A stretch of 64,000 nucleotides of DNA from Amoebophrya sp. A120 (lineage: Eukaryota > Protista > Dinoflagellata): assembly GCA_905178155.1 (NCBI GenBank), contig CAJINV010000005.1:8306515-8370514 (forward strand). Direction: 5' to 3'. Position 1 is the stretch's first letter; the number at the start of each line of letters is the position of its first letter. Positions 1 to 41,300 of the stretch are shown in pieces. Made by a program: the position numbers and the translations under genes. The notes beneath the pieces are model-generated. The model was given only the letters and a program-made list of their open reading frames with translations. It did not search any database and was not told the origin of the DNA.

Positions 1-3000
1 CGGATATGCATTGCAAAAGTTGTATCGTACTAGGTAGTACAAATTGCATATTTCTCAGCGTGAAAAATAAAAATTGAATTTGTCATGCTGTTTTACCTTG
101 GAAATGCGATTTGTAATGCATCACTGCAATTGCTACGAGTGCGATACTTTTGCACAGGATAACGGAGCTGGCGAGCTGATTTTCGCCAAGATTGCGGAGT
201 TACTGGCGCTACTGGAACGGTCGTGCTGCGGCGAGATCGAGTTTTTTTGCGCGATATCAACTGTAGAAATGTCTGGGTCTGGAAGAATGCAACTTGTCAT
301 GCTGATTTTGAATTCTAAAAAAATCTGTATTGCATGGGCAGCAAAGAGAGTCCAAGTTTTGCTACACGGAAAGAGCATTTGTCATGCGGTATAGCATCAG
401 GAAGCCTCACAAAATCTGTGATGCTAGGGCATGCATCACAGACATCAGAAGTCCTGCAAAATGTGCATGACAAACGTGGAAATCTTCCAGACCCAGACAT
501 TTTTACATTTGAAACGCGAAGAAAATTGAGACGGTCATGGTGAAGGACGAGAGCGGCGAGTTTGCGAAGTGGAAAAAGGAAAAGCAGCAGAAGCTCGACG
601 CCGATGGGAGAACGGCTCTGCGCGGGGGAGCTGCTGCGAGCAGCACGACCGCTGGTGCCAGTACAACATCGGACGAACCTCCTTTCCCCTACCCCTGGCC
701 GGTGGCATCGTTCTGTTCGGTGAAAGAGGAGTACGTGCGCAAATTCAGCCTGGCGCGGGAGTTCAAGGACCCAGGTACTGGCACGATATGACAGTGCGCA
801 ACTCCCCCTCCCCCTCATTTGTCATGCAAAAACCCAAATCCAGTTGCTCGTTGTGGCGCCGCGTGCATGACAAATTCCGGAAAGCCCGATAGTACTACAC
901 TCGGAGCATGAACCTGTCATGCACAGGACGCACCTGTACTGGTGTTTGTAATGCTGTTGATGCCACGCAAATGATAATGAGGAGGAGGTGGGGGGGTTGT
1001 GTACTCTCATACACGAACGCGTTGGATGTGAAGCAGTACGAGGTATTTGGAATATCAAATGCAAATATGTCTACTGGGTCTGGAAGTTTGGGATTTGTGA
1101 TGCTAACTCTCGATCCTACAAAAAACTGTATTGCATTACCAGCAAAAGGCGCTCAGATTTTTGCCACGACCCGGATCGGGCATTTCTCATGCAGGATAGG
1201 CATGATGAAGCCTTCGCGAGGGCTGCGATGCTAGAGAATGCACCACAGGCATCGTGGGTCATGTACTATATGCATGACAAACACCCAACTTTTCCAGACC
1301 CAGACATATTTGCAATGCATATGGAGACAAAAGCAACAATAGCAAACCTCCTTCACCGACCGCGTCGCTGTTCACCATGACACAGCGAAAAATGTACAAG
1401 AACTGCGGGCCGATCCCCAATCCCGAGGCAAGGCGGTCGAACTTGGAGGACTTGGTCGGCGACCGGCTGCAGTTTAACACCGGCCAAGCAGTGGAGGATG
1501 AAAAGTGGATCGAGGCGATTCGGGCTGTGTTACCAGTCATTGAATCGGCGGTGCGGGTGTACGATGAGGACTACTTTCACAACTTGCACCATCAGAACGC
1601 GCACGACTACAACCTGCGGGCCTCGAACCCGGAAAGTTCGTCGTCCGAGTGCAAAGTGAACATGAACGAGAAACTTCCGGTCGCAGAATGGCAAGTGGGG
1701 AACAGCTATCAAATGTAAAAGTGTCTGGGTCTGGAAGAATGCAACTTGTGATGCTGCATTTGGATTCCAAAAGAATCTGTATTGCATGAGTACCAAAGGG
1801 AATGTAATTCTTGCTACGCGAAGAGGGCATTTGTCATGCGGAATAGGCATCAAGAAGCTCTCAAAAAATCTGTGATGCTAGGGCATGCATCACAGACATC
1901 AGGGCTCATGCAAAACGTGCATGACAAGTGTCAGAATCTCCCAGACCCAGACATTTTTGCAATGCATAACAGCAACAGCGGGACGCGCGAGTCGAATCAA
2001 GTGCTGATGAACCCAGATCTACCTGCCTCCAAGGATCCCACGGAACCGCAGAACGCCAACCTGCGCGGGTATTTGGAAAACGAAAACCACCCTCTGTACG
2101 ACGGGTCTTTCACCTCCCGTGCACTGCAACCGATCCCAAACTTTTTGATGAAAATTATCCTGAGTAAAAAGAAAAACGTCCCCACCCCATAGTCAAGTTG
2201 GTAAATCTGCAACACAAATCTCCAAGGTTTGGGAGTTGTGCATGACAAGTTTCCATCTGCAGCGTAGTGCGGTGAGCAAGGGAAGCCGCATGAGAATGCC
2301 ACTTTCTCACCCTGGGTACAGCATTACAGATTCCAAAAAACGATTAGAAATGCCTCTCATGGAGATGCGCATTACAAATGTGTCTGTAATCGCAACTCTG
2401 CATGACAGCCATGGAGTGGGGACGTTTTTACTCAGGATACAAATCGAACAGGAGCTGGACGTCGTCATTGCCGACCTGGCGGCAATCACCGGGCTCTTCG
2501 GATTAGCGGTATCAAATGCAAATATGTCTGGGTCTGGAAGAATGCAAGACCTGTCATGCAGATTTTACATCACCCATGACGCCTGTAATGCATAACCTAG
2601 CATCACAGGAGATTTGTTAGAGGGCTTCCTGATGCCTATTCCGCATCAGAAATGCCCTCTCCATGTAGCACAAACTGGGCTCCTCTTGCTGGTCATGCAA
2701 TAAGTACAGATTCTTTTAGAATGTAGAGACAGCATCACAAGTTGCAACCTTCCAGACCCAGACATATTTGCATTCGATAAGCGGCCAGCAGGAACGAGTT
2801 GCTGCACTTCATTCCCACGACGAGAAAAGTGCTGCAGCACCTTGACGAATTGACGACCAGAATTGCCACCATTTTCGAGTACGAGTATTTGGTGCTGAAG
2901 AAAGACGTTTTGGAGCAATATGTGGAACTGTTTCAATACGCAGCCTACGAACGGGTCCGACTGGGAGCGGAGAAGGACAAGAAGCGAAATGCGGACGGCA

Positions 3001-17500: not shown

Positions 17501-20500
17501 TGCAACCAAACTACAGCACTGCCGCAAGATATGGAAGTGTCAGAACCGAAATTGACAAAATCGAAAAACTTGTGATGCACAAAATCGATGCCAGTTAGAC
17601 CCACAGTTTGTAGTCGGCGCATGACAAATTCTCTTCGTCCTGGAAGCGAATCTGTCATGCGGTTTAGGGCAAAAGAGCTGCCTTCTGTCATGCTAGTCAG
17701 CAGCCCAACACTTATTCCTTGCCAGGACTACAATCCGCCTTCCTTGCATCCTCTGCAACAGAGTCGCTTTTTGCGTAGCATTTTACGCATTACAGAGCAT
17801 TTCGATTTTGTCGATTTCGATCCTGACACTCCCATACATGAAACAGCCAGGCGGCGAATGCGAACCAAGACCAAGGGCGGCAGGCGACTGCACGGGAGCA
17901 GCAAGATGCGGGCGACGGCGCAGGCGGGGAAGAAAATACCGGGTGGCGCATATCCTGAGTAAAAGCGTGGTCTCCATACCAGAGTTGTCATGCAAATGCG
18001 CAATAACAGGAACATTTGTAATGCGCAGCTCCATGAGAAAAGGAATTTCTAATCGTGATTTGGAATTTGTAATGCTGTAAACAGGATGTTAAAATGGCTT
18101 TCTCATGCGGCTTCTCTTACCAATCAGCACTACACTGCAGAGGGAACAAAGAACTTGTCATGCACAGCTCCCAAAGCTACTTGGAGACTTGTGTTGCTAG
18201 ATTCCCAACTTGACTATGGGGTGTGGGCCCCGTTCTTTTTGCTTAGGATAGCGCAGACAAGTGAGCAGAATCATCCTCGCAGTAGACTCGCGCGCGGAAG
18301 ACCGGTATGAAATGCAAATATGTCTGGGTCTGGAAGATTCTAAACTTGTGATGCTGTGTCTGGATTCTAAAAAAATTTGTATTGCATGACCAGCAAGAGG
18401 ACTCCAGTTTGTGCCACGCGGATAGGACATTTCTCATGCGGTAAGGGCATCGCAAAGCCCTCGAAAAAGCTGTGATGCTAGAGCATGCATCACAGACATC
18501 ATAGGCCATTCAAAATATGCATGACAAACCAGGCAATCTTCCAGACCCGGACATTTTTGCATTTGATAACCGGTGGGCGATTGACCAGCTTTTCGCACCA
18601 AGTCGAGACAGCGTATTCGAAGTGGGATATTGTGAGGAAAAATCCCCCCTCCCCATACCAAAGCGGGACTCTTCTGAAAATTTGTGATGCTGATTTGAGG
18701 CCACAAATCGTCTCTGTATTGCACGGAGAGAAATCCAAGAACCCCGCCGCGTTCTGCAGGCAATTTGTAATGCTGTTTGGCCAACGGAGGATATGCCGGC
18801 CTTGCTAGGCGCCTACACCAAAACGTCCCTAGTCCGGCTTTGTATAATCTATCTGGAGTCCTCTGCTGCAAGACAAATTCGATTTGTGTACACAGATCCT
18901 GCATCACAGATTTCCAGTTCGATACGGGGAGGGGGGATTTTTCCTTCTGATATCGGAAAAGGTTCCGGGCTTTTTTTTTACCTGGACGCAGGGAACAACG
19001 AGCTGGGGAGCTGTTTATCAAATGCAAATATCCCTGGATGTCTGGAACATTCTAAACTTGTGATGCTGTCTTTCGATTCTAAAAAAGATTTGTATTGCAT
19101 GACCAGCAAGAGGACTCCAGTTTGTGCCACACGGAGAGGGCATTTCTGATGCGGTAGAGGTATGATCGCAAACCGCTCTAAAAATCTGTGATGCTACGGC
19201 ATGCATCACAGACATCATGGGTCATGGAAAATATGCATGACAAATCTAGTAGAAGTCTTCCAGGCCCAGACAGTTTTGCATTTGATACTGTTGCAAGGGC
19301 GACAATAAGGTCGCGAACGGGCAACGAGTATCCTGTGCAAAAGTACCGTACTCGTATTGCAATCATGCATTACATCAAATCTTTTTTTTTAAAGGTAAAT
19401 TCGCATTACAAATTTTACTTCTCATGCTGAGAATTTGTAATGCATTTATTCGAGTGCGATTACGATACTTTTGCAGTTCATAACAAGTCATGGACGCAGC
19501 TGAGTACGGAAACAGGTATGCAAGTTGGACAGGAGGAGGTCAAGGTAGGGGGTATCAATTGCAAAAATGTCTGGGTCTGGAAGATTGCCAGGTTTGTCAT
19601 GCATATTTTGAATGACCGATGATGTCTGTGATGCATGCCCTAGCGTCACAGATTTTCAGCGGACTTTGTGATGCCTCTACCGCATGAGAAGTGCCCTCTT
19701 CACGTAACACAAACTGGAGTCCTTTTGCTGGTCATGCAATGCAAATTTTTTTAGAATCCAGAGACAGCATTACAAGTTTAGAATCTTCCAGACCCAGACA
19801 TTTTTACATTTGGTAGGGGGCAACCAGAGCCCACTCCCCTCCAGCCGCGGCTTGGAACGACATATCCGATGTAAAAACGTCCCCACCCCATAGTCAAGAT
19901 GGGGTCTCGGCTAGACAAATCCACAAGCTTTGGCTGTTTTGCATGACAGATCTCAGCTCGTCGTGTAGTGCTGTTTGAGCTATTTCAGCAGCATCACATA
20001 TCTAGTACATCATGCTGATTGGAGCATGGCAAATTCCAAAACACGACTGGAAAACCCTTTTCATGGGGCTCCGCATGAGAAACATTTTCAGCATGCAGAC
20101 TTGCACGACAGCTCTGGGGTGGGAACGTTTTTACACAGGATACGACGGGACCGGACTTTATCTTCGATACGGGCCTACATGACCCCAGATTCTATTGCAA
20201 GGAAAAATCCCCCCTCCCCATATCGAAAACGGAATTTCTGATGTTGTATTTGAGTATACAAATCGCCTTGGATTGCTAGAAGGCCAAGTGCCGCAGTTGT
20301 GCCGTCGTTTGCAGGCAACTTGTCATGCTGTTACCCACGTCCCAGCTGCCTCCTATCATGCTGAAGATGCAAGGCTTTCCCACGACGGCCAGTACTACAG
20401 TCCGCGTCTTTTGCCTTGTAGCATGGCAAAGCACCCCACAAATCTGCGTCACAGATTCCAAGAGACTAGTGATAGCGTTACTCCATTGCCGCCTTCGCGA

Positions 20501-22337: not shown

Positions 22338-25300
22338 ATGGGCGCCGCCGCAAGCTCCGCCCTGAAGGGGCCCGGAAAGGGAGGGAATAAAGACGGGGAT
22401 ACCAAATGCAAATATAATGTCTGGGTTTGGAAACTTGTGATGCAAGCCAGGGAATACTGGGCGCACTGTCATGCGTGGGCAAGCATGACAAGTTTTTGAG
22501 CTGCTATGTGTAGCGTATTCCGCATGGCAGACTGCGCTTCGCATCACAGACAAGACGATCTTATTACGCCTTCGCATGACCGGGTTCCGAGTCATGTCAG
22601 ACTAGCATGACAAATCTGGCAATCTTCCACACCCAGACATATTCGCATTTGATAGGGGAGAAAAACAAGCAACCATCGCAGCACCAGCAGTGGCGAAAGC
22701 CTAAAGATTATGCAATGCAAAATTTCGTACCAGTATAAATTACATATACAAATAATTAGCCCAGCATTACAAATTTGAATTTGTAATGCTGATTTACCTT
22801 GAGAAAGAGATTTGTAATGCATAAATGCAATTACTACGAGTACGATACTTTTGCACTGGATAAAGATTTGAAGGAAATCAAAAAGCAGAACGAGCAGCGC
22901 AGGAAAGAGCAAGAGGAGCTGGAGAAGCGACGAAAAGAGGCGGAAGAGAAGCTGAGAAAACAGAAGGGTAGCAAATGCAAATATGTTTGCGTCTGGAAAC
23001 TTGTGATGCTAAAACGTGGATGATGGAAACAGTTCCGCACGCATCCCAGCATGACAACTTTCTGGAACGCTTTCTCATAGGCATGAGAAAGTGCGTTTTT
23101 GTAGTATGTACAAAAGAGGCCCCGACTTCTTTTGTTGGTTATGCAATACAGACTTCCTAGGCATGGAAAGCTAGCATTACAAGTTCCAACCTTCCAGACC
23201 CAGACATTTTTGCATTTGATAAAGGAGCTGCTCGAACAGGAGCGAAAACGGTTGGAAACGTATCCTGAATAAAAACTTCCCCACCCCATAGTCAAAATGG
23301 GAAAGCAAATCTGCTAGACCAATCTACAACCTTAGGGTGTTGCGCATGACAAGTTTGGTCGCGTAGTGTAGTCCTTTTTAGCTCGTTCAGAAGCATCACA
23401 AAACTGCCCCACCGTGCTGATTGGAGCATTACAAATCCCAAAACAGCACGACGAGGAGTCGCTTCCCATCGAGCTCCGCATGAGAAACGTTTTGAGCATG
23501 CGTTTTTGCATGACAGCTTTGGGTTGGGGACGTTTTTACATGGGAGAAAACGGCCGAAGAGATCGACGGAGCAGAAGTCGTATGAACTGCAAAAGTATCG
23601 TACTCGTATTGCAATCATGCATTACAAATCTTTTTCTTGAGGTAAATCCGCATTACAAACCTTATTTCTCATGCTGAGGAAACTTGTAATGCATTCATAC
23701 GAGTACGTTACTTTTGCAATGCATAAGTCGGAGACTACGTCGCGGGGCAAACCACAGCGGGAAACACCGCGAGCAGCCCGGAATTGAGTCAAAACAACGA
23801 CATATCCTATGTAAAAACATCCCCACCCCAGAGTTGTCATGCAGATCTGCAATGACAAGAACATTTCTGATGCGCATCCCGATGATGGGCATTTCCAGTC
23901 GTGATTTGGAACTTGTAATGCTGTAAACGGGATAAGCGGATGGATTTGTAATGCGGCTCTCCACACTAACCTGCACTACAGTACGAACTGAAATTTGTCA
24001 TGCGTGACCACCAAAACTTCTAGGTTTGTGTTGCAAAGTCCCCATCTTGACTCTGTGGTGGGGACGTTTTTACTCAGGATACGACAACTACGGAGCAGGA
24101 GCAGCGGGGCAGAATGGCGAGCAGAACTACAATTTCAACCCTGATATCGAATGCAAATATGTCTGGTTCTGGAAGTAGGTTGCAACTTGTAATGCTGTGC
24201 TTGGATTCTAAAACAGTTATGTATTGCCTGACCAGCAAAAGGAGTGCCGTTCTTCCTACGCGGAGGGGGCATTTATTGTCATGCGCAATAGGCATGATCA
24301 GGGAGCCCTCTAATAATCTGTGATGCTAAGCCGTGTAGTTGTACAGGCATTCTGGGCCATGCACATATGCATGACAAAGAACCTGGCAATCTTCCAGACC
24401 CAGACACGTTTGCTGTTGATGCCTGATTACGTCTTCTTCGACGATCAAACGGGCAAATTATCACAAGAAAAAACTGTTTCACTGTAAACTTGTAATGCAG
24501 AAAATGCATCTGAGAAGTGTTTGTCTTGCTAGTCATGCAAGACAGTGGATTTTTAGCTGTGTTTTCCCTTAGGGATCTCGCATGGCAAATTTTCTCTGTG
24601 AAGATGTAGAGCAAACTTGTGATGCAGAACTTGCAAAATCCTTACAGTGAAACACTTTTTTCGTACGATACAAATACATCGCCTACGACTACGACGAGCA
24701 GGGTAATATCATCAACATGCAGGACGTCTTATCAAATGCAAATATGTCTGGGTCTGGAAGGTCGCCAGACTTGTCATGCAGGTTTTCCATGACGCATGAG
24801 GGCTGTGGCTGTCATATATGAGCTAGCATGACAGATTCTGCGCGACCTCTATCATGCCTCGCCTGCATGAGAAACTGCCTCTCAACTTGGTCAGAAGTGA
24901 GCAGCTTTTGGCAATCACGCAACACAGATTTTCGCACTATCCAGAATTAGCATGACAAGTTCCAGTGTTCCAGACCCAGACATATTTGCAATGCATACGT
25001 CTCGGTGCACTACGAAACGGCGGCCGAGAAAGCGCTGAAGAAAGCGGAACAGGTATCCCCAGTAAAAACAACATCCCCATCCCAGAGTTATGATGCAGAT
25101 TTGCAGTGACAGGAAGACTTGTAACTAATGCGCATCTCCACGAGAGGCATTCGCATTTCCAGTCGTGTTTTGAAATTTGTAATGCGGTAAACAGGATAAG
25201 ATAAGGAGATGGCTTTGTGATGCGAGTTTTCGTACTTGCTACAGTGCACTACAATACACAGAAGATTTTGTCATGCGCGAATTCCAAGGCATGTGGATTT

Positions 25301-28300
25301 GTGTTGCGAGATCCCCATCTCGACTCTGGGTTGGGGACGGTTTTTCACAGGATAGCAGGTCGGGATTTTCGACATTATGGAACACGAAGAGGTTATGCCA
25401 GGAAAAAAGCGTCACAGTTACACATTGTGTTGGAGAACGCGCAAGACAGACAACCTCTCTCATGCTGGAAAGGCATGCGAGCCTCGTTTATTCATACGTG
25501 TTTTCCCTTAGCATCTCTGCATTGCAAGTTTTCTCTGCAATGCAGAGCAAGTTTGTGTTGCTAAAGTTGCAACAAATGTGTAACTGTAACACTTTTTCCC
25601 TGTGATAGAGGTGGTCCCCTCGGAGTACGTGAAGAACCAGGAACGCATATCCTATATAAAGACATCCCCGCCCCAGAGTTGTCATGCAGATTTGCAAGCA
25701 CAAGAGCATTTGTAATGCGCATCCCCATGAGAGGCCTTTTCCACTGTGTTTTGGAACTTGTAATGATGTAAACAGGTTGAGGAGACGGATTTGCTATGCG
25801 GCTTCCCTTGCCAAGCTGCACAACAGTACAGCCTGCAACTTGTCATGCGTGACTCCCAAAAGTTCAAGGTGTGTGTTGCAGAACCCCCTTCTTGACTCTG
25901 GGGTGGGGATGTTTTTGCTTAGGATAACGCAAGGAAATCGAGGAGCGGCTGAAACAAGACGAGATGAAGAGGTTATCAAATGTAAAAATGTCTGGGTCTG
26001 GAAACTTGTGATGCTGAATTGCGCATGTTTGAAGCGCTTCCAATGGCAGCCAAGCATGACAAGTTTTTGAGAGGGCTGCTGATGCCTAGCACGCATTACA
26101 AATTGCGTTTTCGCATGACAAAGAAAGCCTCTGTTTTGCTGCTCATGCAACACAGATTTTCCAGGAATGCATGACACGCATTACAAGTTTCAACTTTCCA
26201 GACCCAGACATTTTTGCACTTGATAGAGGTCCAAGCAGAACGAAATCCTGCAATTGCGGCAAAGGGTATGATAGTGCACAACTGCCCCTCCCCCTCATTT
26301 GTATGGCATGAACAGCATCACAACCACCAACATTCATGGAGCCTGTGCATGACAAGTTCACGCGCCGAGTGTAGTACTGTTTCGGCTTGTTCCGGAATTT
26401 GTAATGCAAATAGTGCCATAAGGCACCAACTGGATATGTGGTTTTGCATTACAAATGAGGGGATGTTGTGCACCGTTATAAAGGGAAGTGAAAACGGGGT
26501 CGATTTTTGGGAATCCGAAAAGAAATTCGGACGTGCTGAACGCAAGTCAGCTGGGGAGCAGTCAAAAATTATGCGATGCAAAACAAGTATCCTACTCGTA
26601 TAAATGCATTACAAATTTCCTCAGCGTGAGAAAATCTGTAATGCGGATTTACCTTTAGAAAAAAATTTGTAATGCATGACTGCAATTACTACGAGTTGTG
26701 CGATACTTTTGCACAGGATAGAAATCCATTGGGACCAACAACAGCCTCCGGTCGAGCCAATTGTCGCTCAACAACACCCAGGATAAGCAGGTTTTACAGC
26801 TGCAGGACGAGTTGGTCTCCAAGCACGAGAAGCTGAAACTACCGGAAAACATGTCCTTAGAAAACACTCTGATTGACGCCGCGAACAAAATCTGGGAGCA
26901 AATTATCCGGGAAAACAAGTCCCGCCGAGTATTACAATGAACAATGCCCCCACCCCCGAACTTGGGAGAATTTGTATTGCAAACCTTTCCAAAAGAAACA
27001 TTCGCCCTCTTGCATCTATCAGCATCACAGATTTCCAATCGTGAATAGCAAAAACTTGTATTGCAAAAGATCCCAGCAAAAGCGGCGCTTGTCATGCAAG
27101 CGATGCGATTCACGCCTAGACCCTGTATCAGAAAGATTCATACTCCTTTCATGCATGACAAAAAGTTTTCTTTTGGAAAATTCGCATCACAAATTTTTGC
27201 AACTGTGGGAGTGGGGGCATTTTTAACTGTAATACCGAGCGGAGTTGAACGCGAGCGGCGGGTTAGGACCCCCGGGCAGCACGTTGACGTATCAAAAGAA
27301 AAAATTCCCCCTCCCCATATCGAAAGCGACATCTGTGACGCTGTATTTGAGTACACAAATCGACTTGTATTGCTAGAAGGCCAAGAGCCGCAGTTGTGGC
27401 CTCGTTTGCAGGCAATTTGTCGTGCTATGTCGCACTTCCAGCTGCCTCCTGTCGTGCTGAAGATGCAAGGCCTTCCCACGCCGCCCAGCACTACAGGCCG
27501 CATCTTTTGTTCCCTTCTAGCATGACACAGCTGATTTGTGACCACAAATCTGCATCACAGATTTCCGCTTTGATATGGGGAGGGGGGATTTTTCTTCTCG
27601 ATATGACGCAGCCGCAGAACAACACGACCAATGCGACGTCGCAGAGAACCAGCACGCGACCCTCGCAAAACAATAACAACTCTCCGGCCAAGGCAAATTT
27701 CGGCAACGACCTGAATAACCCGAACGACCCCACCATTCTGCTCACGCTGAAGAAACAGGTGGAAGAGGCGGCGCTATTGAGAGGAAAAAATCCCCCCTCC
27801 CCATATTGAAAAGGTATGTTTCCGAAAATTTGTGTTGCTGATTTGTGGCCACAATAAATCAGGTTTGTCGTGCAAGAAGACAAGTGCAAAGGCTTCCCTC
27901 CCATTCTGGAAGCGATTTGGCATGCTGTTTGGCCTAGAGGGCAGCCGTTTGCGATGCTAAGCAACTAGATCCAGGCGCACCTATCCAGGCGAAGGATCTG
28001 GCCGCAATGCCTTACAGCAAGACAGAGCGCATTTGCGTACGCAAATTCAGCACGAGAAACTTCGTTTTGATATGGGGAGGGGTGATTTTTCTCCTCGATA
28101 GGCGCACTCTCTGGAGGCGTACGAGAACGACCTGGAGACCTACGCGCAGCAGAAGTATGCGCTCATACACGAACTGGACCAGCTGGTCTTGAAGATCGAG
28201 CCCAACGCGATTTTGGGGTATAACGAGCAATTGGAAACCGCCTACGAATATCCAGTGCAAATATGTCTGCATCTGGAAACTTGTGATGCACAAAAGGAAT

Positions 28301-31300
28301 AAATAGTGAGCACACTCTGATGCGCTGCCAAGCATGACAAGTTTTTTCGTGGTTCTGAGTTGCGTACTCCGCATGAGAAACTGCGTTTTTGCATGACAGG
28401 CAAGAGGAGCCCTTCGCGGCCGCGCAATACAAAGTTCAGAGTCATTCTAGACTAGCATGACAAATCTCGCAATCACCGCCCAGACCCAGACATATTTGCA
28501 GTTGATAACGAATTTGTCGAGGGCGAGTTCGCCATTCGGAAGGGGAAACTGTGCACCATATCGCAAGAAAAAATTGTTTCACTGTAAACTTGTGATGCAT
28601 AGAATGGAGCACAGAAGTGTTTGTCTTGCTACACATGCATAGGGCATTGGAGTTTCAACCGTGTTTTATTCCCTTAATTTTCTTTGTCATGTACAACAAA
28701 TAACCTGTGATGCAAAACAACTTGCAAAAAAATCCTTACAGTGAAGCACTTTTTTCTTGCGATACACCATTCACAAGATCCACCACCAGGAGCTGCCATA
28801 TGGGGTTCTCAAACGTTACATTCTCAACCGTTGCATGATTTGTCATGCAAACTGACCATGAGGCGCCGGACGATGAAGCCGCTTCGCATGAGAAATTCTC
28901 GGAGGGCCAAATAGCACTAGAATCCGCACCAAATCTGTAATGCAAGATGCGCAAGGTTCTCCCTCTCGCCTGTGCTATTCTTGCATTACCAATGCATGTA
29001 ACAGTTGAGAATGTAACAGTTGAGAACGCCATATGCCACCCTACTACGAAGTGAAACCCTACTACCACAACGAAAACTTGACAAACAATTTCACCATGAA
29101 TCAAAACATCATCGGGACCGAGGCGACCAAGCTGAAGGCATTGGGACCGGTGCTATTGAGAGGAAAAATCCCCCCTCCCCATATCAAAACGAAATTTCTG
29201 ATGCTGGATTTGTGTACACAAATCCGAGCTGTCTTGCTGTAGAGCACTGCAGGCGCATACTAAGTGTGAGTAGAGAGGTTTTGGCCTAGGCACTTAGCAT
29301 GAAAAATGTCAGCACTGTAGGCCCAACAGCATGACAAACCGCCTGCACAATGCGGCGGAGCCTGCGGAGTTGCTTTCTTGCAAGACAGACGCGATTTGTG
29401 GCCGCAAATCAGCATCACAAATTTCCAAAAGTATACCTTTTCAGTATGGGGAGGGGGGATTTTTCCTTTTGATAGGTGCAGGCCGGGCAGGTCCGGGCGA
29501 AGATGCGAAGCATTGTATTACAATAAAAAGTGCCTCCATGGCCCCGGGAGTCAGTCGCAACAGTTTCTGAGATGCAAAGTTTCCAAACGGAAACTTTCTG
29601 TCTTGCATGAAATAAGCACTCTGAGTCTTTCTGGCACAGAATCTAGGCTCGCGAGGCACCTTTTGCATGACAGGCCCGGCTGTTGTTGGGCTCTTTAGCA
29701 ACACAAATTTTAAGCTGTTCAGCATCGAAAATTGGCGATGCTGAGACATGCAACACGGGGAATGTTTCTATTGCGAAAGGTTGCAAAAATACGTATGCTC
29801 CCATGCTTCTGGGGTGGGGGCGTTTCTCATTGTAATACATTGATGTGATTGAGTCCAAAGTCGTCGTCGCGGACGAAGGCAAGCGAAACGCGGAACAGGA
29901 CTTGGTCATGAACCACAAGAAGCTAGAGGAGTTGTTTCAAGCCATGAAGCTTGGGAAGGACATATCCAAGAGAAAAACGTTGTTAGTGTAAATTTGTGAT
30001 GCGCAACATGCAGGATTGCGTCTGTCATGCTTGGCATGCATCGTAGGGTCCATTAGCGGGCATTTTCACGTACTATCTGCGCATGACAGGTTTTTGCTGT
30101 CATGCCAGACAAATTTGTAATGCTGTTCCTCCTAAAAAGTTACACCTACAATGTTTTTTTCTTGGATAGGACAATCCGCCCGCGAATCCCGGACCCCCGG
30201 TCACCTTGCCCATCCCAATGCTGCCGACCCAGCCACAGCAGCCCGTGGATTTGAACATGACGATATCCAATAAGAAAAGATTGTAGCTGTAACTTTCTTG
30301 GAGGAATAGCATCACAAATCTGTCTGCGAGCAGAAACCTGTCATGCGCAGACTGTACGTGAAAACGCGCTTGGAAGTAGAGCCTAACGATGCATGCCCAG
30401 CATGACAGCCGCAATCACTTTGCATGTTGCGCATCACAGAGTTACACTAACAATGTTTTCTTCTTCGATAGACAAGAACGCGGGGCATAGCCGCGCAGAA
30501 CATTCCGCGCCCGGTTAGTAGCCGGCCGAAGTGGAAGCCGGGGATGGGGCCGGTGAACATGTATCAAAATGAAAAATCCCCCTTCCCATATCAACGTGGG
30601 AATTTGTGATGCTGATTTGTGGTCACGAATCACCTTTGTCTTGCCTACACGGAAATGGGAACTATGTGGCGCATTCCACAGTCAGTCTGTCATGCGCTTT
30701 CGACTGCTGCAAACCTATTTGCCATGCCTAACGGCTAGCCTTCTGCATACCCAAGAAACAGGCCCAGAAAATGACCCCAACCACTTTCTGCAAGGCAGAC
30801 CTGATTCGTGTATGCAAATCCAGCATCAGAAACCTCGTTTTTTTATATCGGGAGGGGGGATTTTTCCTTGTGATAACATGCCCAGCATTGAAGTCGTGAA
30901 AAAGTGGGCACAGCCGGGTATGCAGGACTACAGTCCGCCACATAATCAGATGGAAAGCGACAACGTCAATTTGAACCAGAACTATAGTCAGAACAACTAT
31001 GGAGGTCCTGGCGCAGGACAGCATTACAACTCTGCGAACCCGACTACCCAATACCAGTACCAGCAGGTGCAGGGCGGCGCGGGCATCTACACGAGTCCGG
31101 TCACGCGAAATTCCAGTGCGTCCAATAGCAAGGAAAAAGAGAAGGAACGGGAGCAGCTTATTGTGTGTAAAAACGTCCCCACCCCATAGACAAGATGAGA
31201 AATCTGCTAGACAAATCAGCCAGCTTTGGCTGTTGGGCATGACAAGTTTGGCTTCGTAGTGTAATCCTGTTGAGCTTGTTCAGCAGCGTCCCAGGTCTTG

Positions 31301-34300
31301 CCTATTATGCTGATTGGAGGGAGCATTTTACAAATTCCAAAACACGGCTTCGAGCAAATGCTTCTCATGGTGCTCCGCATGAGAAACCTTTTTAGCGTGC
31401 AGATTTGCATGACAGCTATCGGGTGGAGATGTTTTCACACAGGATACAGCTCATTTTTCAGCACGGGGAGAAGATGCGACAAGAAGAGTACATGCGCCAA
31501 GAGGAATATCCGAGAAAAAAACTATGTGAGTGTAAGTCTGTGATGCAGAAAATGCAAAACTGTTTACACTTGTCATGCTGCTCTTCCGTACAAAGTTACA
31601 CTTACACAGTTTTTTTGCTGGATACAGAACAGAGAAGCAGCCGAAAAAATTCGAAGTCGCAAAACAGCGTACCGACCACCGGGGGTTTCGGGCTGCCGTC
31701 CATGGAAAAAATGCAGGCGGATAGGGCGAAGTATTTTAATTTGTTTTTTTCAAAGACTGTAAGAAGTACTTTACCAATTATGGCCTCACTGCTGGCAAAA
31801 GATGTTGTTCTTGGCTTGTTCATCTTGCAGTGAAAATAGTAGTTGTCGTCCGGCGGAAGATGTTCTTCCAGTGGGTTTTTTTTGTGAATATAGAGTACGT
31901 TTTATGTTGGTCAAAAATTTTGAAACAGGATGGACCAGCAGCAGCAGCAGCAGCAGACCCAGCAAGCTCAACAGCAGCAACAGGCCGCCCAGCAGCAGCA
32001 GCAAGCCGGGAAGACAAAATGGATTCCCTACTCCACCTATGCATTGCAAATATGTCTGGATCTGGAAAGATGCAACTTGTCATGCTCAATCTGGATCGTG
32101 CCAAAAATTTGTGTTGTATGATCAGAAAGAGATGTCCACTTTTAAACAAGTTCAGATGGAGTTTCTCATGCAGGATAGGCATGACAGAGACCGTACAGAG
32201 TCTGTCATGCTAGGCCCCGCATTCCAGACCTCATGGGTCATGGAAAACCTGCATGACAAGTTTACACTCTTCCAGACCCCGACATATTTGCATTTGATGC
32301 CACCGAAGACGGCAACGTCTTCTACTACAGCGAACAAACGGGCGAATCGGTGTGGGAACTGCCCGCAAACGCAGAAGTCGACTACAGTAACTGCGAAAAC
32401 GACACTAATGTCGAGCAGCAACGGCAGAAAGAGGAGGACGAGTACTACCAACAGTACGGGTACGCAAACCGGCAAGCCTACGAAGACGCTTGGTACAAGG
32501 CGGAGGCAGAGAAACAGGCGAAAGAGCAACAGAAAATAAAGGAACAAAAGCAGGACCCTATCCTGAGTAAAAACGTCCCCACACCAGAGGCAAGATGGGG
32601 ATTTTGCAACACAAGCCTAGAAGCTTTGGGAGTCACGCATGACAAATTGCACTCCGTAGTGCAGTGCAGGATAGCAAGTGCAGCCGCATCACAGATTCAT
32701 CTGCTTATCCTGTTCATAGCATCACAAATTCCAAAACACGATTGGAAATGTTTACCATAGGTATGCGCATCACAAATGTCCTTGCCATTGCAAATCTGCA
32801 TGACAACTCTTGGGTGGGGACGTTTTTCCTCAGGATAGACCCGTTTTACCACTTGCGACAGCACGAGCAGCATATCCTGTGCAAAAGCATCTTCGCACTT
32901 ACTCGTGATGATTGCAGGCATGCATGCATGACAAATTTCCTTTCCAAGGTGAAACAGCACGACAAATTCAATTTTTCATGCTGAGAACATTTGTAATGCA
33001 ATTTATACTAGATAGTGCGATGCTTTTGCAATTCATACAGCAACAGGCACAACAGCAAGCCGAGTGGGCGGAGTGGTACTGCTGTAAATGAGGTTTTATT
33101 TTGGTAAATGCATGGATCGTGTGTGCGCTATGCATGACAGGCAGCTGTTGCGTTGCGCTGCCTCGCATGACAAAGGCAAGTTTCTTCGAAAATATAATCT
33201 ACAGGTACAAGCAATATCAAGCGTGGTACGCCGGGAGTGTGGGTGGACAACAGCACCAACTTATGGGAATGAAATATATACTTCCTGTCATGAGGATGAG
33301 CTTTTGTTTAAATAGCATTTTATGCATGACAAAACCGCTCTGCAGTCATGCAGACTAGGACAGCAAATGACAAGTTTAGTATTTCATCCCCATATTGCAC
33401 AACCAGCAGCAAAACAATCCGTATGGAAATAACAGCAGCCAGCCCTTCGTTGGCAACCCCTACCAAAACCAGCAAAATACCAATGCGGGCTACGGAGCAC
33501 AACAGCAACGGGGACCACACCACAATGCAAACTCCCCCGGTATGGCGTTCTCAAGCGTTACATTCTCAACTGTTACATGAATTTGTAATGCAAGGCTAGC
33601 ACAGGCGAGAGAGAGAACCTTGCGCGTCTTGCATTACAGGTTTGGTGCGGATTACAGTGCTATTTAGCCATCCGGGAATTTGTCATGCGAAGCAGCTCGA
33701 TCGTCTGGCGGGTCATGGTCATTTTGCATGACAAATCGTGTAACAGTTGAGGATGTAACGTTTGAGAACCCCATACCCGGCGGGCCACAGCATCAGCAGA
33801 ACCAGCGACCTCCCACTGGGGGAACCCCGAATTTGCCGCCCGGGGTGCGCTATCAAATGCAAAAGTGTCTGGGTCTGGAAGAATGCGCGATTTACATTAA
33901 CATTGCTTGACTTCCGGGTTCTGGTACGGCATACCCCCAGCGAGAGGTGAACTCGACAGGTGACCTCGACAGGTGACCTTGACAGGTGACCTTGACCGGT
34001 GACCTAGACAGGTGACTTGGACAGGTGACCTGTACAGGTGGCCGCGACAGGTGACGACGACAGGCGAGGCGAGAGGATAAATCACAGGCGAGGCCAGCGC
34101 CTACGCTCGTGTCGTATGTTATTGACGTGAAAAGCAAACATTTGCGACACAGAAAATGAAAAAGAGAAAAGCGCAAAAAAAAAAACTGCGACGCAGAACA
34201 TGAAAAAGATAAGAGCGCAAAAACACAAACTGCCCCCACACACACACAAAGAAGTCTCTGCGTCGCGGTGCAAAAATATTAAAAAAGTGCTTTCTCTTTG

Positions 34301-36658
34301 CAATGCACGCCCAGGGGGAGACGGCTGCTTACTTCGCCTCCGGAATCGGGAATGAGTTGCAGCCGGGCAGAGATAAGTATGTCCTCTGCTTCTATTTCTG
34401 TTTTGTCTTGCAAAATTAATGCAGGGCACCTAATTCATCCTTTTGCCAATAGCGCTTAGCGCACTAAGCCACTATGCGCGCGCCTGGTGAGAGGCGAGGG
34501 GCGGACGCTGTCCGCACCGATGCCGAGCACCCTTCCCCCACTAGCGCTTCGCGCACTAAGCCACTATGCGCGCGCCTGGTGTGAGGCGAGGGGCGGACGC
34601 TGTCCGGCCCGATGCCGAACACCCTTCCCCCACTAGCGTTTCGCGCACTAAGCCACTATGCGCGCGCCTGGTGTGAGGCGAGGGGCGGACGCTGTCCGCC
34701 CCGATGGCGAACACCCTTCCCCCACTAGCGTTTCGCGCACTAAGCCACTATGCGCGCGCCTGGTGTGAGGCGAGGGGCGGACGCTGTCCGCCCCGATGGC
34801 GAACACCCTTCCCCCGCTAGCGTTTCGCGCACTAAGCCACTATGCGCGCGCCTGGTGTGAGGCGAGGGGCGGACGCTGTCCGCCCCGATGGCGAACACCC
34901 TGCCCCCACTAGCGCCACTAGGGACGGGGACAAGGCCCCAGCGTGGGGACCCTGTCCCCACGCGTGGGTCTTGTTTGTCATGCAGCTTTTCCATGACCCA
35001 TGACATGAGGTCTGGAATGCAGGACCTAGCATGACAGATTCTGTGCGATCTCTCTCATGCCTATCCTGCATGAGAAACTCCCTCCCGACTTAGTCAAAAC
35101 TGGACGACTTTTGGTAATCTATCACGCAACACAGATTTTTGCACGTTTTCAGATCTAGCATGACAAGTTGCATTCTTCCAGACCCAGACATTTTTACATT
35201 TGATATGCGCGACCCTAAGTTGAAGCCCATTTTGGACCCACAGTTTGAGGACCGAGCGGTATGGCAAGGAAAAATCCTCCCTCCTCATATTGAAGACGCA
35301 CCTTCTGAAAATTTGTGATGCGGATTTGTGACCACAAATCCTGTCTGTCTTGCGAGAAGGCAAAGCCAGGCTCTCTGACACGCTATGCAGGCGATTTGTA
35401 ATGCTGTAAGGACTGCAGGGCAGCCGTCTACCATGCTAGGCGCCTACACCAAAGAGCCTCTATCTAGGTTGGCGATCAGCGTGCAGTCCTCTACTGCAAC
35501 ACAAATCTGATTTGTGTACGCAAATCCAGCATCACGGATTTCCTTTTCGATATGGGAAGGGAGAGCTTTTCCTTTTGATAAGCGGTTTATCTGATGAAAG
35601 CGGGGATCTTGAAGGAGATGGAACTCATGGTCCAGAATAAAACCTCGATAGAGGATCGGAAGAAGGCGTTGCGAATATGCAACGAAAAAAGTGTTTACAG
35701 TGATACATCCTGTTGCGGAACAAGCAAGACAGACAACCTTTGTCATGCTAGAAATGCTTGCGGCTCTCCGATTTCGTACGTGTTTATTTCCCTTATGATC
35801 GCTGCATTGCATATTTTCTCTGTCATGTTGAACAAACTTGTGTTGCTGAAATTACAACAAAAAGTGTGTTGTAAAACACTTTTTTCTTAGGATAGCAGAA
35901 ACTGAAATTTCAGTGGCACCCGGACAAAAATCCCGAAGACCCGGAGGTGGCTATCAACATGAAAAATCCCCCCTCCCCATACTCAAAGGGAGATTTGTTT
36001 AGCATCATTTGCGATCACAAATCACGTTGCCATGCCAGAATGGAAGATATGCGGATTGTAGGGGTGGCTGGCGTAGGAAAGCATTGCGTCTTCAGCATGA
36101 CAGGAAGCAACTGGAAGTGGGCAACAGCATGACAAATCGCCTGCAAACGAGGCCGCAACTGCCTCTCTTGGCCTTCTAGGAAAACAAGTCGACTTGTGTA
36201 CTCAAACACAGCAACACAAATTTCGTTTGCGATATGGGGAGGGGGGATTTTTTCTCACAATAGTGGCCAAGTCGGTGTTTCAGTTCGTGGAGGAATGCAA
36301 AATTTGGTTTTTGCTCGACGAAGAGGAATATGCATTGCAGATATCGATCTGGGTCTGGAAGAGCCCGAACTTGTGATGCTAGCTCTCGAGCAGACAAAAA
36401 TCTGTATTGCGTGAATGCCAAACGCTGTCCACTTTTGGCTACACAAATAGCGGACTTTTCATGCGCAGCACGCATTAAGAATAAGAACAAGAAGCCTCCG
36501 CAAATAATAAACCTGTAATGCTTTGCGTGCATTCCTGGCCATCCATGTGTTCCAGAAGATGCATGACATTCTAGTGCACTCTTCCAGACCCAGACATATT
36601 TGCATTTGATAAAGGGGGCGAAGGGGGGACGAGTGTCGGGGGCAAGAGTCCGATTTGA
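22338..36658 (+). CDS. Gene 3, WW-domain plus C-terminal J-domain (DnaJ-like) protein with possible N-myristoylation; 38 TIR introns and 2 GT-AG introns
   Basis: Starts MGAAASS. Elements at 22400-22654, 22709-22862, 22969-23221, 23261-23547, 23581-23725, 23803-24081, 24145-24421, 24459-24670, 24730-24997, 25054-25354, 25394-25607, 25648-25926, 25974-26225, 26267-26480, 26570-26720, 26930-27234, 27290-27603, 27775-28100, 28249-28507, 28559-28764, 28799-29033, 29154-29474, 29516-29837, 29963-30168, 30264-30470, 30562-30875, 31159-31446, 31507-31624, 32038-32299, 32559-32837, 32873-33037, 33262-33394, 33541-33775, 33851-35205, 35260-35580, 35676-35894, 35952-36262, 36329-36611. Inferred GT-AG introns at 31731-31928 and 33076-33204. 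Splicing rebuilds KWIPYSTEDGNVFYYSEQTGESVWELP (WW) and RKKALRKLKFQWHPDKNPEDPEVAKSVFQFVEE (J domain). Could be two genes split near 31833/31930. Confidence 0.85.
24459..24670. mobile_element. Introner family I (3 copies, about 210 bp), representative copy
   Basis: TIR TATCNCAAGAAAAAACTGTTTCACTGT; TSD CAAAT. Others at 28559 and 61604. Confidence 0.9.
25394..25607. mobile_element. Introner family J (3 copies, about 210-220 bp), representative copy
   Basis: TIR TATNNCAGGAAAAAAGYGTYACAGTTACACA; TSD GAGGT. Others at 35676 and 61895. Confidence 0.88.
28799..29033. mobile_element. Introner family K (2 copies, 235 bp, opposite orientations)
   Basis: TIR TATGGSGTTCTCAARCGTTACATTCTCAAC; TSD TGCCA. Second copy 33541-33775, TSD CCCGG. 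Confidence 0.92.
31507..31624. mobile_element. Singleton short introner (118 bp)
   Basis: TATCCGAGAAAAAAACTATGTGAGTGTAA ... TTACACTTACACAGTTTTTTTGCTGGATA. TSD diverged (AGGAA/CAGAA); frame restored. Confidence 0.8.
33262..33394. mobile_element. Singleton short introner (133 bp)
   Basis: TIR TATGGGAATGAAATA / TATTTCATCCCCATA. TSD not recognisable, but removing the element plus 5 nt restores the frame. Confidence 0.78.
33944..34066. repeat. 13-bp tandem repeat (GACAGGTGACCTN)n, about 9 degenerate units
   Basis: Directly visible. Confidence 0.9.
34459..34914. repeat. 92-bp tandem repeat x5
   Basis: GCACTAAGCCAC recurs at 34461, 34553, 34645, 34737, 34829. Units contain the hairpin GGGGCGGAC-GCT-GTCCGCCCC. 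Confidence 0.95.
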
Positions 36659-37027: not shown

Positions 37028-38390
37028 TAGTCTACTACCACAGTTGCAGTTTCTATTTAAAATACCTTACCTGTTGTTCCTGTTGTACTCAGAAGTCGTC
37101 GAGAGCGCGAGGTTTGACTTGATACTCCTGTATGATGCTCATCATCTTCTCTACTTCTGTACAAAAAGCGCCGGACGGGGAAAAGAACGCACGACCCTTT
37201 TCACTAACAAATTGTTGGTGTAAGAATGAACGTTAAGAGGCTGCACCAAGAGAGCCGAAAATGGAATATTCGTTCCGAACAAGACCCGGCCAAATTTGAA
37301 GGCACGCGGCGGGGGGAGAGGAGACAGAGGAACTGTTCCACCCTCGTCGCACTGGTGCCGCTAAGTAGCAAACACATTCGGATGATTTGTAGTATCCTCT
37401 TTCTGCTTGATGTTTGTAGTATCTTCACTTCACCTCGGATGTCTTTTGCTTGATGTGTAGTCTTCGCGCTCCGACTCCGGCGGAAGGCGGTATCTACGTG
37501 TAAATATAGAAGGCGGCTTTAACCACTTGCTGACGAAGGTAATAACTACATCCTCGGTAGAAGTTCTACAGATTATACTATTTCGTCCGCAACAAGAAGG
37601 ATCGGTTAGGTTTGTTTCGTGCGCAACTGCGCTTCGATCGGTTTGATTCGTACCTACATTAGAATCTTCTCGGTGGACGATGGGCTACGTGCTTATTTTT
37701 CTGTTCACGCATTCGCGTGTAGAAGATGTCGTTCATCATGCTTGGCAAAGATTGAGATCATGGTGAAAAAAATACGCTTCAGTCGTGGACCCTTTTTTCC
37801 ACTTCTTCCCCCTTGTTCCCCGCGAAAAAGAATTCTAGTCGTCTTTAATGTGTTTCTGAAGTTTTGACAAAATTTGTTTTCCTTATTTTCATTTAAGTTC
37901 ATTTTCATCTTCCATTCGAGACCCAGACATATTTTTATTTGCACTTGATAGCGAAGCAGAGGCAGTAGCGGAGCAAGACGATGGCGACGAAAACGGCCGC
38001 CGCGCTCCTGTGCGCGTACCTGGTTTTGTTCGACGGCCCTATTGGTTTCCTGTTCGTGTCCGCGGTGGCGCGCCACTTTCTCGAGCCGACGCGGGAGCGG
38101 GGAAGCACAACCTCTGACGAAAATACGGCCGCGGGAAATGAGAGGATTCTAACGGCGGTGACCATCGGCGCAGATAGCGAGACGGAACCTGCTCCGGCGC
38201 AGTCTACTACTTTTGTCGACCACGAAGAGGCGACGCCCGCGGCGAAGGGCGAAATCGATGCAGCTGTGGACACGACTGCAAGCAGCGCAGCGAGCGAAAC
38301 GGCGCCACCCGGCGAGGTCGTGGTTGCGCGAGAAACTGCGCCTGCAGCCGGGGACGGCGCGACGGGCACTCTGTTTCTTGAACGAGAAGC
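37028..38390 (+). repeat. Segmental duplication, copy 1 (upstream region plus N-terminus of gene 4)
   Basis: Aligns by eye with 45998-46920 plus 49951-50440, e.g. shared GTTGGTGTAAGAATGAACGTTAAGAGGCTGCA. Confidence 0.9.
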
Positions 38391-41300
38391 AGCAGCTGTG
38401 GACCGGCGGGGAGAACAGTCTTCACGTGAATTCGCCGAAGACCCCCGTTTCGGATCGATCGCACACGGTAAGGCACTTGTGGAAAAAGCTATGGACAAGC
38501 AAAATGGAAAATGGGTATCTCGATTTGACGTCAACCCCGTCCTTGATGAATACCGGGTTGCTTTCCGGCTCGTGCTCCAGAAGAACGCGCTCAAACAGGA
38601 CGCGTGCCCAATCCAGATGACCAGCGCTGAGATTCAATCTTCTGACCCCGCCACGAGTTCTGAGGCACAGGTTGAACACGCCACGAGGTCTGCGCCTGAG
38701 GCTTCTTCTCCGCATGATTCTTGTGCGGAAGAAGTGTTGCAGTGGGTACGCGGAAGATTTTTGGTTGAAGATGATAATGCGGTTGGTGTCCATGAGAATC
38801 CATTCTTGACCTTGCACTCGCACCTCCTCGTCGATTTGAACGGAAGTGAAACTTCATCGAATTTGCGGACCGTGTGCCAGGGGGAAATCACAAAGCTCAA
38901 GAAGGCAGCAACGGAGTCTGGTCCGTAGGCACTGCAAATATGTCTTGGTCTGGAAACTTGCGATGCTGGTTGATCGCAGTGATCGAGCATCGTCTCCAGT
39001 GCGGCCAAGCATGGCAAATTTCTGTGACGCCTTCTCATGCGTAGCGCTCATTAGAGACTGCTTATTTTTTGCCAAAAAATAAAAGAAGTCGCGCTTTTGT
39101 TAGTCACGCAACACAGATTTCGCAGTCATGTACGCCAGGCAATACACAAGGGACAGGCTCCACTTTTCCAGACCCAGGAGACATATTTGCACTTAATACT
39201 GTGTCGTGGTGGGCAAATTTTAAGGCCAGAACGCACTTTCGTCTTTTTCCAGTGTATGCCAAGAAAAAAGTGTTAGAGTACTAGATGTGCACATACGTTG
39301 ATTGTGTATTGTAGTTTCTGGCCAAGCACGTGCACGACTGCAGCGAAGGTCTGCAATGCAAGACATGCTCAAGAACACGAGTCTAGGTTCAGCATCCGTG
39401 CTGTTTTCCCTCATGATCATCTCTGCATTGAAAATTTGCTCGGTGATGAGGTAGGAGGAAACCTGTGTTGCTGGAGTTACAGCAAATCTGTGAAGAAGAC
39501 TGTAGGTCCTAACACTTTTGTTTTCTTGGCATACAGAATACGCGACCAAGCGGTATGTGGTGCTGCCGTTGCTGAAAAAGGCACTGCATCGCTGCGAGGA
39601 ATTTGCCTCCGAGGAGCTTGCGCGGTCGAAGGCTGCAGATGAACGAACTGGAGCTGAAAAGCGCTTTTCTACAGAAGGCCCACCGGCAGGTGCACCAGGA
39701 CCGGCACGTGCACCAGGCGAGGCAGGAGCTGGACGGGGAGTCGCGTCAGGGCCCGCGGTCGAGCTGCGTCAGGGCGCCACTGCCGCAGCCGCGTCACGCA
39801 TCGAACCCGCCGCACCCGCCGCAGCCGCGTCACGCATCGAATTCGCCGCACCCGGCGCAGCTGCGTCACCGATCGCACCGGCAGCAGCCGCCGACCGGCC
39901 CGCAGTCAAAGGCGCACCAGCGGGTGCTTCTCCAGCTCACAGTGGGCCTGCGAGGCCCTCGGGTGTGGGCGTGAGCGAGCCGAGCCGGCCCGGGTCTGCT
40001 TCCCCCGCACCCGGCGGGCATCAACGTGCGAATCCCTCGGATCCGGGAGCAGGTAAGCGCACGCCTATAGCAGCCCATGAATGCATACGCATGTTGACAA
40101 ACCGCATGACACAATACGCCACCAACCCAAAATAAAAAAAAAAAACAACAGCGCCACCAGGAGCGGCGGGAGCTGCCGCAGCTGCGCCACCGGTCGCACC
40201 GATCGCACCGTTCTGGCAAGAACAAGAGGACCTACCCAATCCGCAGCCAGGTACCTTGCAAGTTTTTTTCTTTCCGTCAGCATGATTGGAGGAGGAGGTC
40301 CCAGTGCACTGACTTCTTGCTTGCGACAAACCCAAGGATTTGGCGCACGCTCGCATCTTCCCAAAGAGATGCAACAGGCGCGGCGCCGTTGTAAAGCCTG
40401 AACTGACAATTTCTATAACTCAACTATACGATTAGATGTTGTAGTCGAGACAATGAGGTGCAGGTGGAGTACTAAGATTAGCATGAAGAAAGAAGCCAAG
40501 TAGCGCTTGTCCACGACTTCTACTCGAATGCCTGCTCAAGGGATCGATGGGGCGACTAATTGGACTACTAGCAAATTAATGTTGCTCACAGGAAATTTCG
40601 ATGTTCCGTATGCATACTCGTAGAAATGTGGTTTCTGAATGAAAAAAGGTTCTTTCGATCCTATTTATTGAGCAGCAGCGTCCTCACGAGTGGCATGCTC
40701 TATGTACGAAAAAAACTTGACGACATTTATTCTTGTGATGCATTTATATGCGAAATTACTATCTCTTCCCTCGCAGGAGTCGACGAGCAAGGTGCGACCC
40801 CCTCGGATAAGGGTGTTCGCGAGCCGAACCAGCGCGGGAAGTGGATGGGCTACGACGTGAACGATGCCATGGATCCCGGGCAAGATAGAGGCAGTGGCTT
40901 CGTTTTTGCTGCCAGATTCAAGGACGACTTGGAAACCGGGGCAAAGGGGGTGGCGCTCGCGTATCCAAGGCAAGACGGGGTGGAAAAGGGAAAAGTAAAG
41001 GTGTTGATCGTGCCATTCAAGCCCGGGGGGGAGGAGTCTCCCGTGCGGATCGAAATGGTCTCGGCGGACGACCTCGTTCTCTCGCTCGCGTTGCCGCAGC
41101 TCGGATATGGACGCGGAAGTAAAGCGACACTGGAAAACGCTTTGCTCGGCCCGGATTCCTATGCAATGTAAAAATGTCTGTGTCTGGAAGGTTGCAACCT
41201 GTAATGCTAATTCTGGATCGTGCAAAAATCTGTGTTGCATGAATGCCAAAAGCTGTCCACTTTTGACCAAGTTGAGAGGAAGTTTCTCATGCAGGATAGG

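Follow-up and report, generated by a model that had tools for sequence, protein, structure and literature searches.

Can an introner be removed from a message whichever way round it lies in the gene? The question is raised by a 64,000-nucleotide (nt) stretch of the Amoebophrya sp. A120 genome (NCBI GenBank assembly GCA_905178155.1, contig CAJINV010000005.1, positions 8,306,515 to 8,370,514 of the forward strand), here called the window, whose own numbering is used throughout. Its genes appear to be read from the + strand and are interrupted by many short elements with inverted-repeat ends, each flanked by a direct repeat of about five base pairs (bp). A reading of the letters before any comparison with other data (the sequence-only reading) had proposed, from one pair of copies in each of five families (A, B, C, F and K), that such elements function as introns in both orientations. 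We put the probability at about 0.8 that these are non-autonomous A120 introners which lie in both orientations within + strand genes, and that the mRNA loses exactly the element plus one copy of its 5-bp duplication.

Removal was followed in assembled contigs of runs X1-X4, which come from one study and two samples; no run is recorded as RNA. The contigs contain 0.22-0.27 of the region's sampled words and behave as cDNA. In each run a single contig of 3.6-4.4 kilobases (kb) joins 27 introns between positions 23255 and 33776. Each joint deletes the element and 5 nt more, and its position can be fixed only to within the length of the direct repeat (5-6 nt). The two K copies, inverted relative to each other, are both lost in this way, as are copies of families F and B lying in either direction (Table 1). 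The host gene holds 29 family-assigned elements, among which seven families occur in both orientations, and all are removed. Exact removal of both orientations from one mRNA is confirmed. The sequence-only reading had further held that frames are restored either way; RNA bears this out for K, F and B, and for A and C the evidence is the open reading frame that remains after excision. Three raw-read RNA runs carrying the same species label (X7-X9), compared with 20 kb, gave 4, 2 and 42 reads, the 42 being partial matches at 30063-30095 that run into unrelated letters.

The joints were assembled into a spliced model of the host gene by adding eight introns to the 27 seen in contigs, seven of them from element and duplication boundaries and one, 31731>31930, from contig record positions. 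With these 35 introns out, the + strand reads through 1014 codons without a stop. The model agrees with a public 803-residue Amoebophrya sp. A120 protein (P0001) over the first 764 of its residues, and the exon at 30875-31153 is 100% identical to that protein over 93 amino acids.

Direct repeats around a stable hairpin are a classic setting for template switching, and the apparent introns could be jumps of reverse transcriptase between the 5-bp repeats across a strong hairpin. That every joint is ambiguous by the repeat length would suit such jumps, but there is no open frame unless the elements are removed, and the long frame of the spliced model appears when they are. Moreover, elements with decayed repeats, in which 4 (30264), 3 (31507) or 1 (33262) of the 5 positions still match, are lost in the same geometry, and in some introns, for example 29580-29751, interior depth is 0 to about 1 in all four runs. 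We therefore consider jumping very improbable. Slightly less probable again is programmed excision of the elements from the DNA of expressing cells. Precise transposon excision would be expected likewise to lose the element with one duplication copy; however, runs X5 and X6 hold 0.59-0.63 of the sampled words, against the much lower share in X1-X4, a difference that fits, indirectly, DNA with the elements and RNA without them. Removal from RNA is the reading that we carry forward.

The K copies, each 235 nt long, form inverted arms that are 89% complementary, as had been claimed. With their ends trimmed, the interiors are 88% identical as reverse complements, compared with 61% directly and a shuffled baseline of 56%. 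Because the interior matches far better as a reverse complement than directly, the orientation is real and not a palindrome effect. The other four named pairs also proved to be inverted. After 40 nt had been trimmed from each end, interior identity as reverse complement and directly was 77% and 62% for pair A, 70% and 58% for pair B (2156-2439 against 23803-24081) and 84% and 58% for pair F; for pair C the local alignment scores were 61 and 29.

An all-against-all comparison yielded 11 families comprising 76 elements. Its 359 signed similarity links are free of inconsistency, and orientation is therefore well defined. Over the 64-kb window the two orientations were counted as 17:16 in the largest family (family 0, which includes A), 6:4 in family 1 (B), 3:5 in family 2, 4:3 in family 3 (C), 1:2 in family 4, 2:1 in family 5 (F), 3:0 in family 6, 2:1 in family 7, 2:0 in each of families 8 and 9, and 1:1 in family 10 (K). 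On a tree of family 0, sister copies supported at 97-99 in the Shimodaira-Hasegawa-like approximate likelihood ratio test (SH-aLRT) lie in opposite orientations. The orientation label switches nine times on this tree, compared with a mean of 11.4 when labels were shuffled, and 45-50 of 500 shuffles were equally low.

The elements themselves are sharply defined. A strict scan for TAT...ATA ends, with at least 10 of 14 inverted-repeat positions matching and a perfect 5-bp flanking duplication, found 51 in the window, none in each of five shuffles and none in the reversed sequence. When one mismatch in the duplication was allowed there were 181 matches against 41-44 in shuffles, and these were kept only after a family-membership filter. 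In the pooled consensus of 102 arms, positions 1-3 are TAT in all, about seven positions are variable, and positions 11-15 are A in 81-95 of the 102. No consensus emerged among the duplicated 5-mers, whose G+C content is 61%. Rfam, searched with the whole window at gathering thresholds, gave no match. The introner elements published for A120 have inverted repeats that open with TAT and close in a stretch of A, direct repeats of 3-5 nt and predicted hairpins, and form non-canonical introns of about 240 nt; many of their families are strain-specific (Farhat 2021, PMC7789003). The window's repeats are these elements, sharing with them the genome, the TAT inverted repeat, the short direct repeats and the non-GT-AG borders.

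They also have the traits of non-autonomous DNA transposons with terminal inverted repeats (miniature inverted-repeat transposable elements), namely inverted termini, a target duplication of fixed length, small size and many copies. Reverse splicing would yield one orientation and no duplication. The inverted-repeat ends, the fixed 5-bp target-site duplication and the presence of both orientations therefore fit DNA transposition, as the sequence-only reading had argued, and we infer that the elements inserted as DNA transposons regardless of the strand of the gene.

The position of the intron border is called 'unknown' in the Fig. 3 legend of Farhat 2021 (PMC7789003). A perfect duplication hides the cut and a decayed one reveals it. 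We therefore examined d5, the number of nucleotides between the end of the exon and TAT, at six introns where it is constrained, five by contigs and one by P0001 (Table 1). In the last case, the intron at 22969-23221, the protein has E and not G, and the fifth duplicated base of the mRNA therefore comes from the 3' copy. A d5 of 1 with 4 nt after ATA is the sole register that satisfies all six constraints, and it is allowed at every other joint. This tentatively points to a single cut register. If it holds, the first intron base, in 26 introns, is A in 8, G in 8, T in 7 and C in 3, and is therefore unconstrained. The intron at 33851-35205 was considered as a contradiction and dropped, since its perfect duplication makes it uninformative.

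The TATCC end resembles the 5' consensus of U12-type introns, and repeat ambiguity might mask the borders of ordinary GT-AG or U12-type AT-AC introns. Seven of the 36 introns can indeed be read as GT/GC-AG at an allowed register, but the other 29 have no such reading at any register, and the spread of first bases is equally unfavourable. Instead of TATCC, many ends read TATCA or TATG. The U12-type 5' end /RTATCCTT was tried and rejected, as 10 of 26 introns have, under the fitting register, a pyrimidine just ahead of TAT, and position 5 after TAT-C/G is mostly A. In addition, no U1 small nuclear RNA (snRNA) and none of the minor-spliceosome snRNAs U11, U12, U4atac and U6atac is reported as found in A120 (PMC7789003). 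Ordinary introns with masked borders thus have only a very small chance of explaining the joints, and we keep to non-canonical removal of the whole element.

Of the seven introns that can be read as GT/GC-AG, five are inverted-repeat introns. The duplications at 25394, 25974, 25054, 29154 and 27775 contain AG|GT-like words, GAGGT occurring twice, and so allow this reading. Such readings are commoner than chance would suggest, which hints at target preference or selection.

All 26 inverted-repeat introns tested fold in either orientation, with 19-39 pairs between the first and last 45 nt and z-scores of -2.7 to -14.3. In sense RNA the first K copy folds with a terminal stem at a z-score of -7.5, and the second gives -11.4. 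The interiors carry a further motif common to otherwise unrelated families, the octamer TGTSATGC (complement GCATSACA). The window contains 294 occurrences, compared with 5.1 in shuffles, and 244 of them fall inside elements; the octamer may be a transposase binding site.

Such a motif raises the possibility that strand-specific spliceosomal signals are present on both strands, inverted internal motifs such as a branch-point-like octamer allowing use in either orientation. The octamer's abundance is in keeping with this, as is its mirror-image placement, roughly 40 nt in from either end, in families 0 and K. Whichever way an element lies, the run of A at each end also supplies a run of U 10-14 nt ahead of its 3' boundary. 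In family B, however, the octamers run one way (five GCATSACA and no complement in 32559-32837; four TGTSATGC and no complement in 23803-24081), yet both orientations are spliced, so the octamer is not a required sense-strand signal. Other spliced elements, among them 25394-25607 and 27775-28100, have no octamer at all, and no branch point was observed. We regard internal strand-specific signals as an unlikely explanation, though less so than the three considered above. The proposal that the signals are symmetric therefore stands for the inverted-repeat ends, while the bidirectional internal motifs that it included are not required.

These observations suggest how an element could be removed irrespective of its direction. 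It would insert as a DNA transposon, blind to the gene's strand. The removal machinery would then probably read the two ends only. Their sequence does not change with orientation, and by pairing into a long terminal stem they would be able to bring the two copies of the duplication together. Cuts would probably be set by distance from these ends, the 5' one 1 nt short of TAT and the 3' one 4 nt beyond ATA, with no particular bases needed at the junction. Excision is asymmetric about the element, the decayed junctions placing the 5' cut 0-2 nt before it and the 3' cut 3-5 nt after it, and polarity therefore comes from the transcript: the asymmetry would follow the direction of the RNA and not of the element. 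If the ends are read as identical and the cuts made by distance along the RNA, orientation becomes irrelevant. That a junction- and orientation-blind machinery measures in this way from paired ends, following an N1...N4 code that is fixed, takes account of polarity and eliminates exactly one 5-bp duplication copy, is a conjecture that we consider possible but doubtful. If true, it could mean that splicing is heavily altered or proceeds by a route other than the spliceosome, in a way that makes the insertion of DNA transposons into exons harmless.

Several points weigh against the interpretation or parts of it. The contigs show that the spliced form is present and not the level of retention, and all the RNA evidence comes from one study together with public annotation. 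The cut register derives from few junctions; three of them bound it tightly, and one of these is taken from an annotated protein and not from reads. A test for maintenance of the stem at the RNA level was null, with 65 sense-strand G-U mismatches against 73 A-C; the test thus gives no sign of selection on RNA pairing, and recognition of the ends could depend on their sequence instead of a stem. As to orientation, two family-0 subfamilies are skewed, 9:2 and 15:7, on the tree. The window has no significant orientation bias, yet a modest one of the kind found in Polarella would be compatible with n=33.

Table 1. Positions, strands and joints of the host gene and of the introners discussed. Joints are given as the window positions they connect.
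Feature	Positions	Strand	Details
Host gene	22338..35240	+	start codon ATG at 22338; 36 or more introns, including 33 inverted-repeat elements up to 33860; protein glutamine-rich and WW-domain-like
K copy 1	28799..29033	+	235 nt; duplication TGCCA at 28794-28798 and 29034-29038; joint 28793>29034, 240 nt skipped, 4 runs
K copy 2, inverted relative to copy 1	33541..33775	-	duplication CCCGG on both sides; joint 33535>33776, 240 nt skipped
F copy	29963..30168	+	duplication GGACA; joint 29956>30168, 211 nt skipped
F copy, inverted	30264..30470	-	decayed duplication GACGA / GACAA; joint 30262>30475, 212 nt skipped; contigs: joint ambiguous by 1 nt, 5' cut 0-1 nt before TAT, 3' cut 4-5 nt after ATA
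B copy	32559..32837	+	joint 32553>32838, 284 nt skipped
B copies, same orientation as 32559-32837	23261-23547, 31159-31446	+	
B copy, inverted	23803..24081	-	joint 23796>24081, 284 nt skipped
B copy, same orientation as 23803-24081	25648-25926	-	joint 25641>25926, 284 nt skipped
A (family 0) copy	255..514	+	removal judged from open reading frame after excision
A copy, inverted relative to 255-514	2510..2779	-	removal judged from open reading frame
C copy at window edge, inverted relative to 19329-19482	5..161	-	aligned with 19329-19482 as reverse complement
C (family 3) copy	19329..19482	+	assigned to family 3; aligned with 5-161
Family 0 copy	22969..23221	-	duplication decayed at position 5 (AAGGG / AAGGA); public protein P0001: d5 at least 1
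Constrained intron	25054-25354		contigs: d5 at most 4
Constrained intron	26570-26720		contigs: d5 at most 4
Constrained intron	31507-31624		contigs: d5 at most 3
Small inverted-repeat element	33262..33394	.	flanking duplication unrecognisable, still removed with 5 extra nt; joint 33259>33398; contigs: joint ambiguous by 1 nt, 5' cut 1-2 nt before TAT, 3' cut 3-4 nt after ATA
1.36-kb intron	33851..35205	.	family-0-type inverted ends; perfect duplication TGCGC; holds 92-nt tandem array

Transcript contigs of the host gene extend to about 37250. An X1 contig departs from the window at 33850 and resumes with letters from 35211 onward, and so appears to join across the 1.36-kb intron. The tandem array in that intron consists of about five 92-nt units at 34436-35006. 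The P0001 model loses frame after the intron 31731>31930 and stops at 803 amino acids (window 31731-32032); the RNA contigs support a frame that continues through the WW-like domain for at least 1014 codons.

The statement of the sequence-only reading that all genes lie on the + strand is supported, though not proven: after excision of the elements there are 11 long + strand frames, of 319-1024 codons. Those of the - strand are shorter, and the longest among them, at 498 codons, is antisense to the glutamine-rich gene. Genes of A120 are described as grouped in co-oriented blocks (PMC7789003). A Pfam search with seven exon or reading-frame translations and P0001 returned nothing beyond a sub-threshold KilA-N match, in the frame at 50049-51683 (E 0.0006, 20.1 bits against a cutoff of 23.8). 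This frame and that at 37969-38925, both on the + strand, open with nearly identical 40 residues and are probably tandem paralogues. Exons 1329-1706 and 15863-16123 had no match among longer proteins, and a representative search gave only a 97-amino-acid fragment. This database entry (P0002) is 93% identical to exon 1329-1706 (window about 1490-1670) and, after the residues KVNM, enters an apparent unspliced family-2-type element; the window has no element there. It may be that relatives or paralogues differ by an insertion at this site.

Exact removal, whatever the orientation or the junction sequence, means that almost any insertion into a coding exon would be harmless. This would account for a gene whose message of about 3 kb is interrupted by 36 introns, and for the tens of thousands of such introns in A120. 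Gene prediction in such genomes depends on exact removal of introners, as the public model of the host gene, out of frame after one intron, illustrates. Decayed duplications offer a cheap genome-wide route to the true cut sites, which bears on whether the spliceosome is involved.

Compared with the A120 introners of Farhat 2021 (PMC7789003), the elements of the window share the organism, the TAT and A-run inverted repeat, the 5-bp repeat of the example figure, the length of about 240 nt and the hairpins, and differ in nothing of kind from that description. The main text and supplementary legends of that paper do not discuss element orientation relative to the transcript. A literature search found no paper on the orientation or cut register of A120 elements; the supplements of Gozashti 2022/2025, which lay outside its scope, may hold orientation data, and the 2022 method had opposite-orientation matches built in. 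Introners that act in either orientation have been described in Polarella glacialis (classes 6, 8, 10, 2, 7 and 3) and, by citation there, in Aureococcus anophagefferens (10.1101/2020.10.14.339549). As in those species, the same A120 family forms introns in both orientations and removal leaves the length of the mRNA unchanged. The Polarella and Aureococcus elements draw GT/GC/GA...AG dinucleotides from the duplication or the element end, which is possible in 7 of the 36 A120 introns and absent from 29; and every class described there is orientation-biased (10.1101/2020.10.14.339549), whereas the A120 window shows no significant bias. The finding is thus real and informative but, set against these accounts, mostly known. 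The present analysis adds a count of orientations, proof from RNA that a single mRNA loses elements lying either way round, and a candidate for the cut register.

The nonconventional introns of euglenids provide a second comparison (PMC12501133, PMC11282704). They share with the A120 elements non-GT-AG borders, inverted ends that pair, and duplication-like repeats that blur the junction. On the cut register proposed for A120 the spacers are asymmetric in both, the 3' one being longer by 2-3 nt, and this N1...N4 code would, if true, parallel the euglenid N3...N5-6. Circular excision products have been reported in Euglena (PMC12501133, PMC11282704). The euglenid signature, 5'-N3 CDG ... CHG N5-6 followed by R, is not that of A120: the pairing motif is CDG/CHG in the one and TAT/ATA in the other, the fitting spacers in A120 are 1 and 4 nt, and the lineage is different. 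The resemblance is functional and does not place the A120 elements in the euglenid class.

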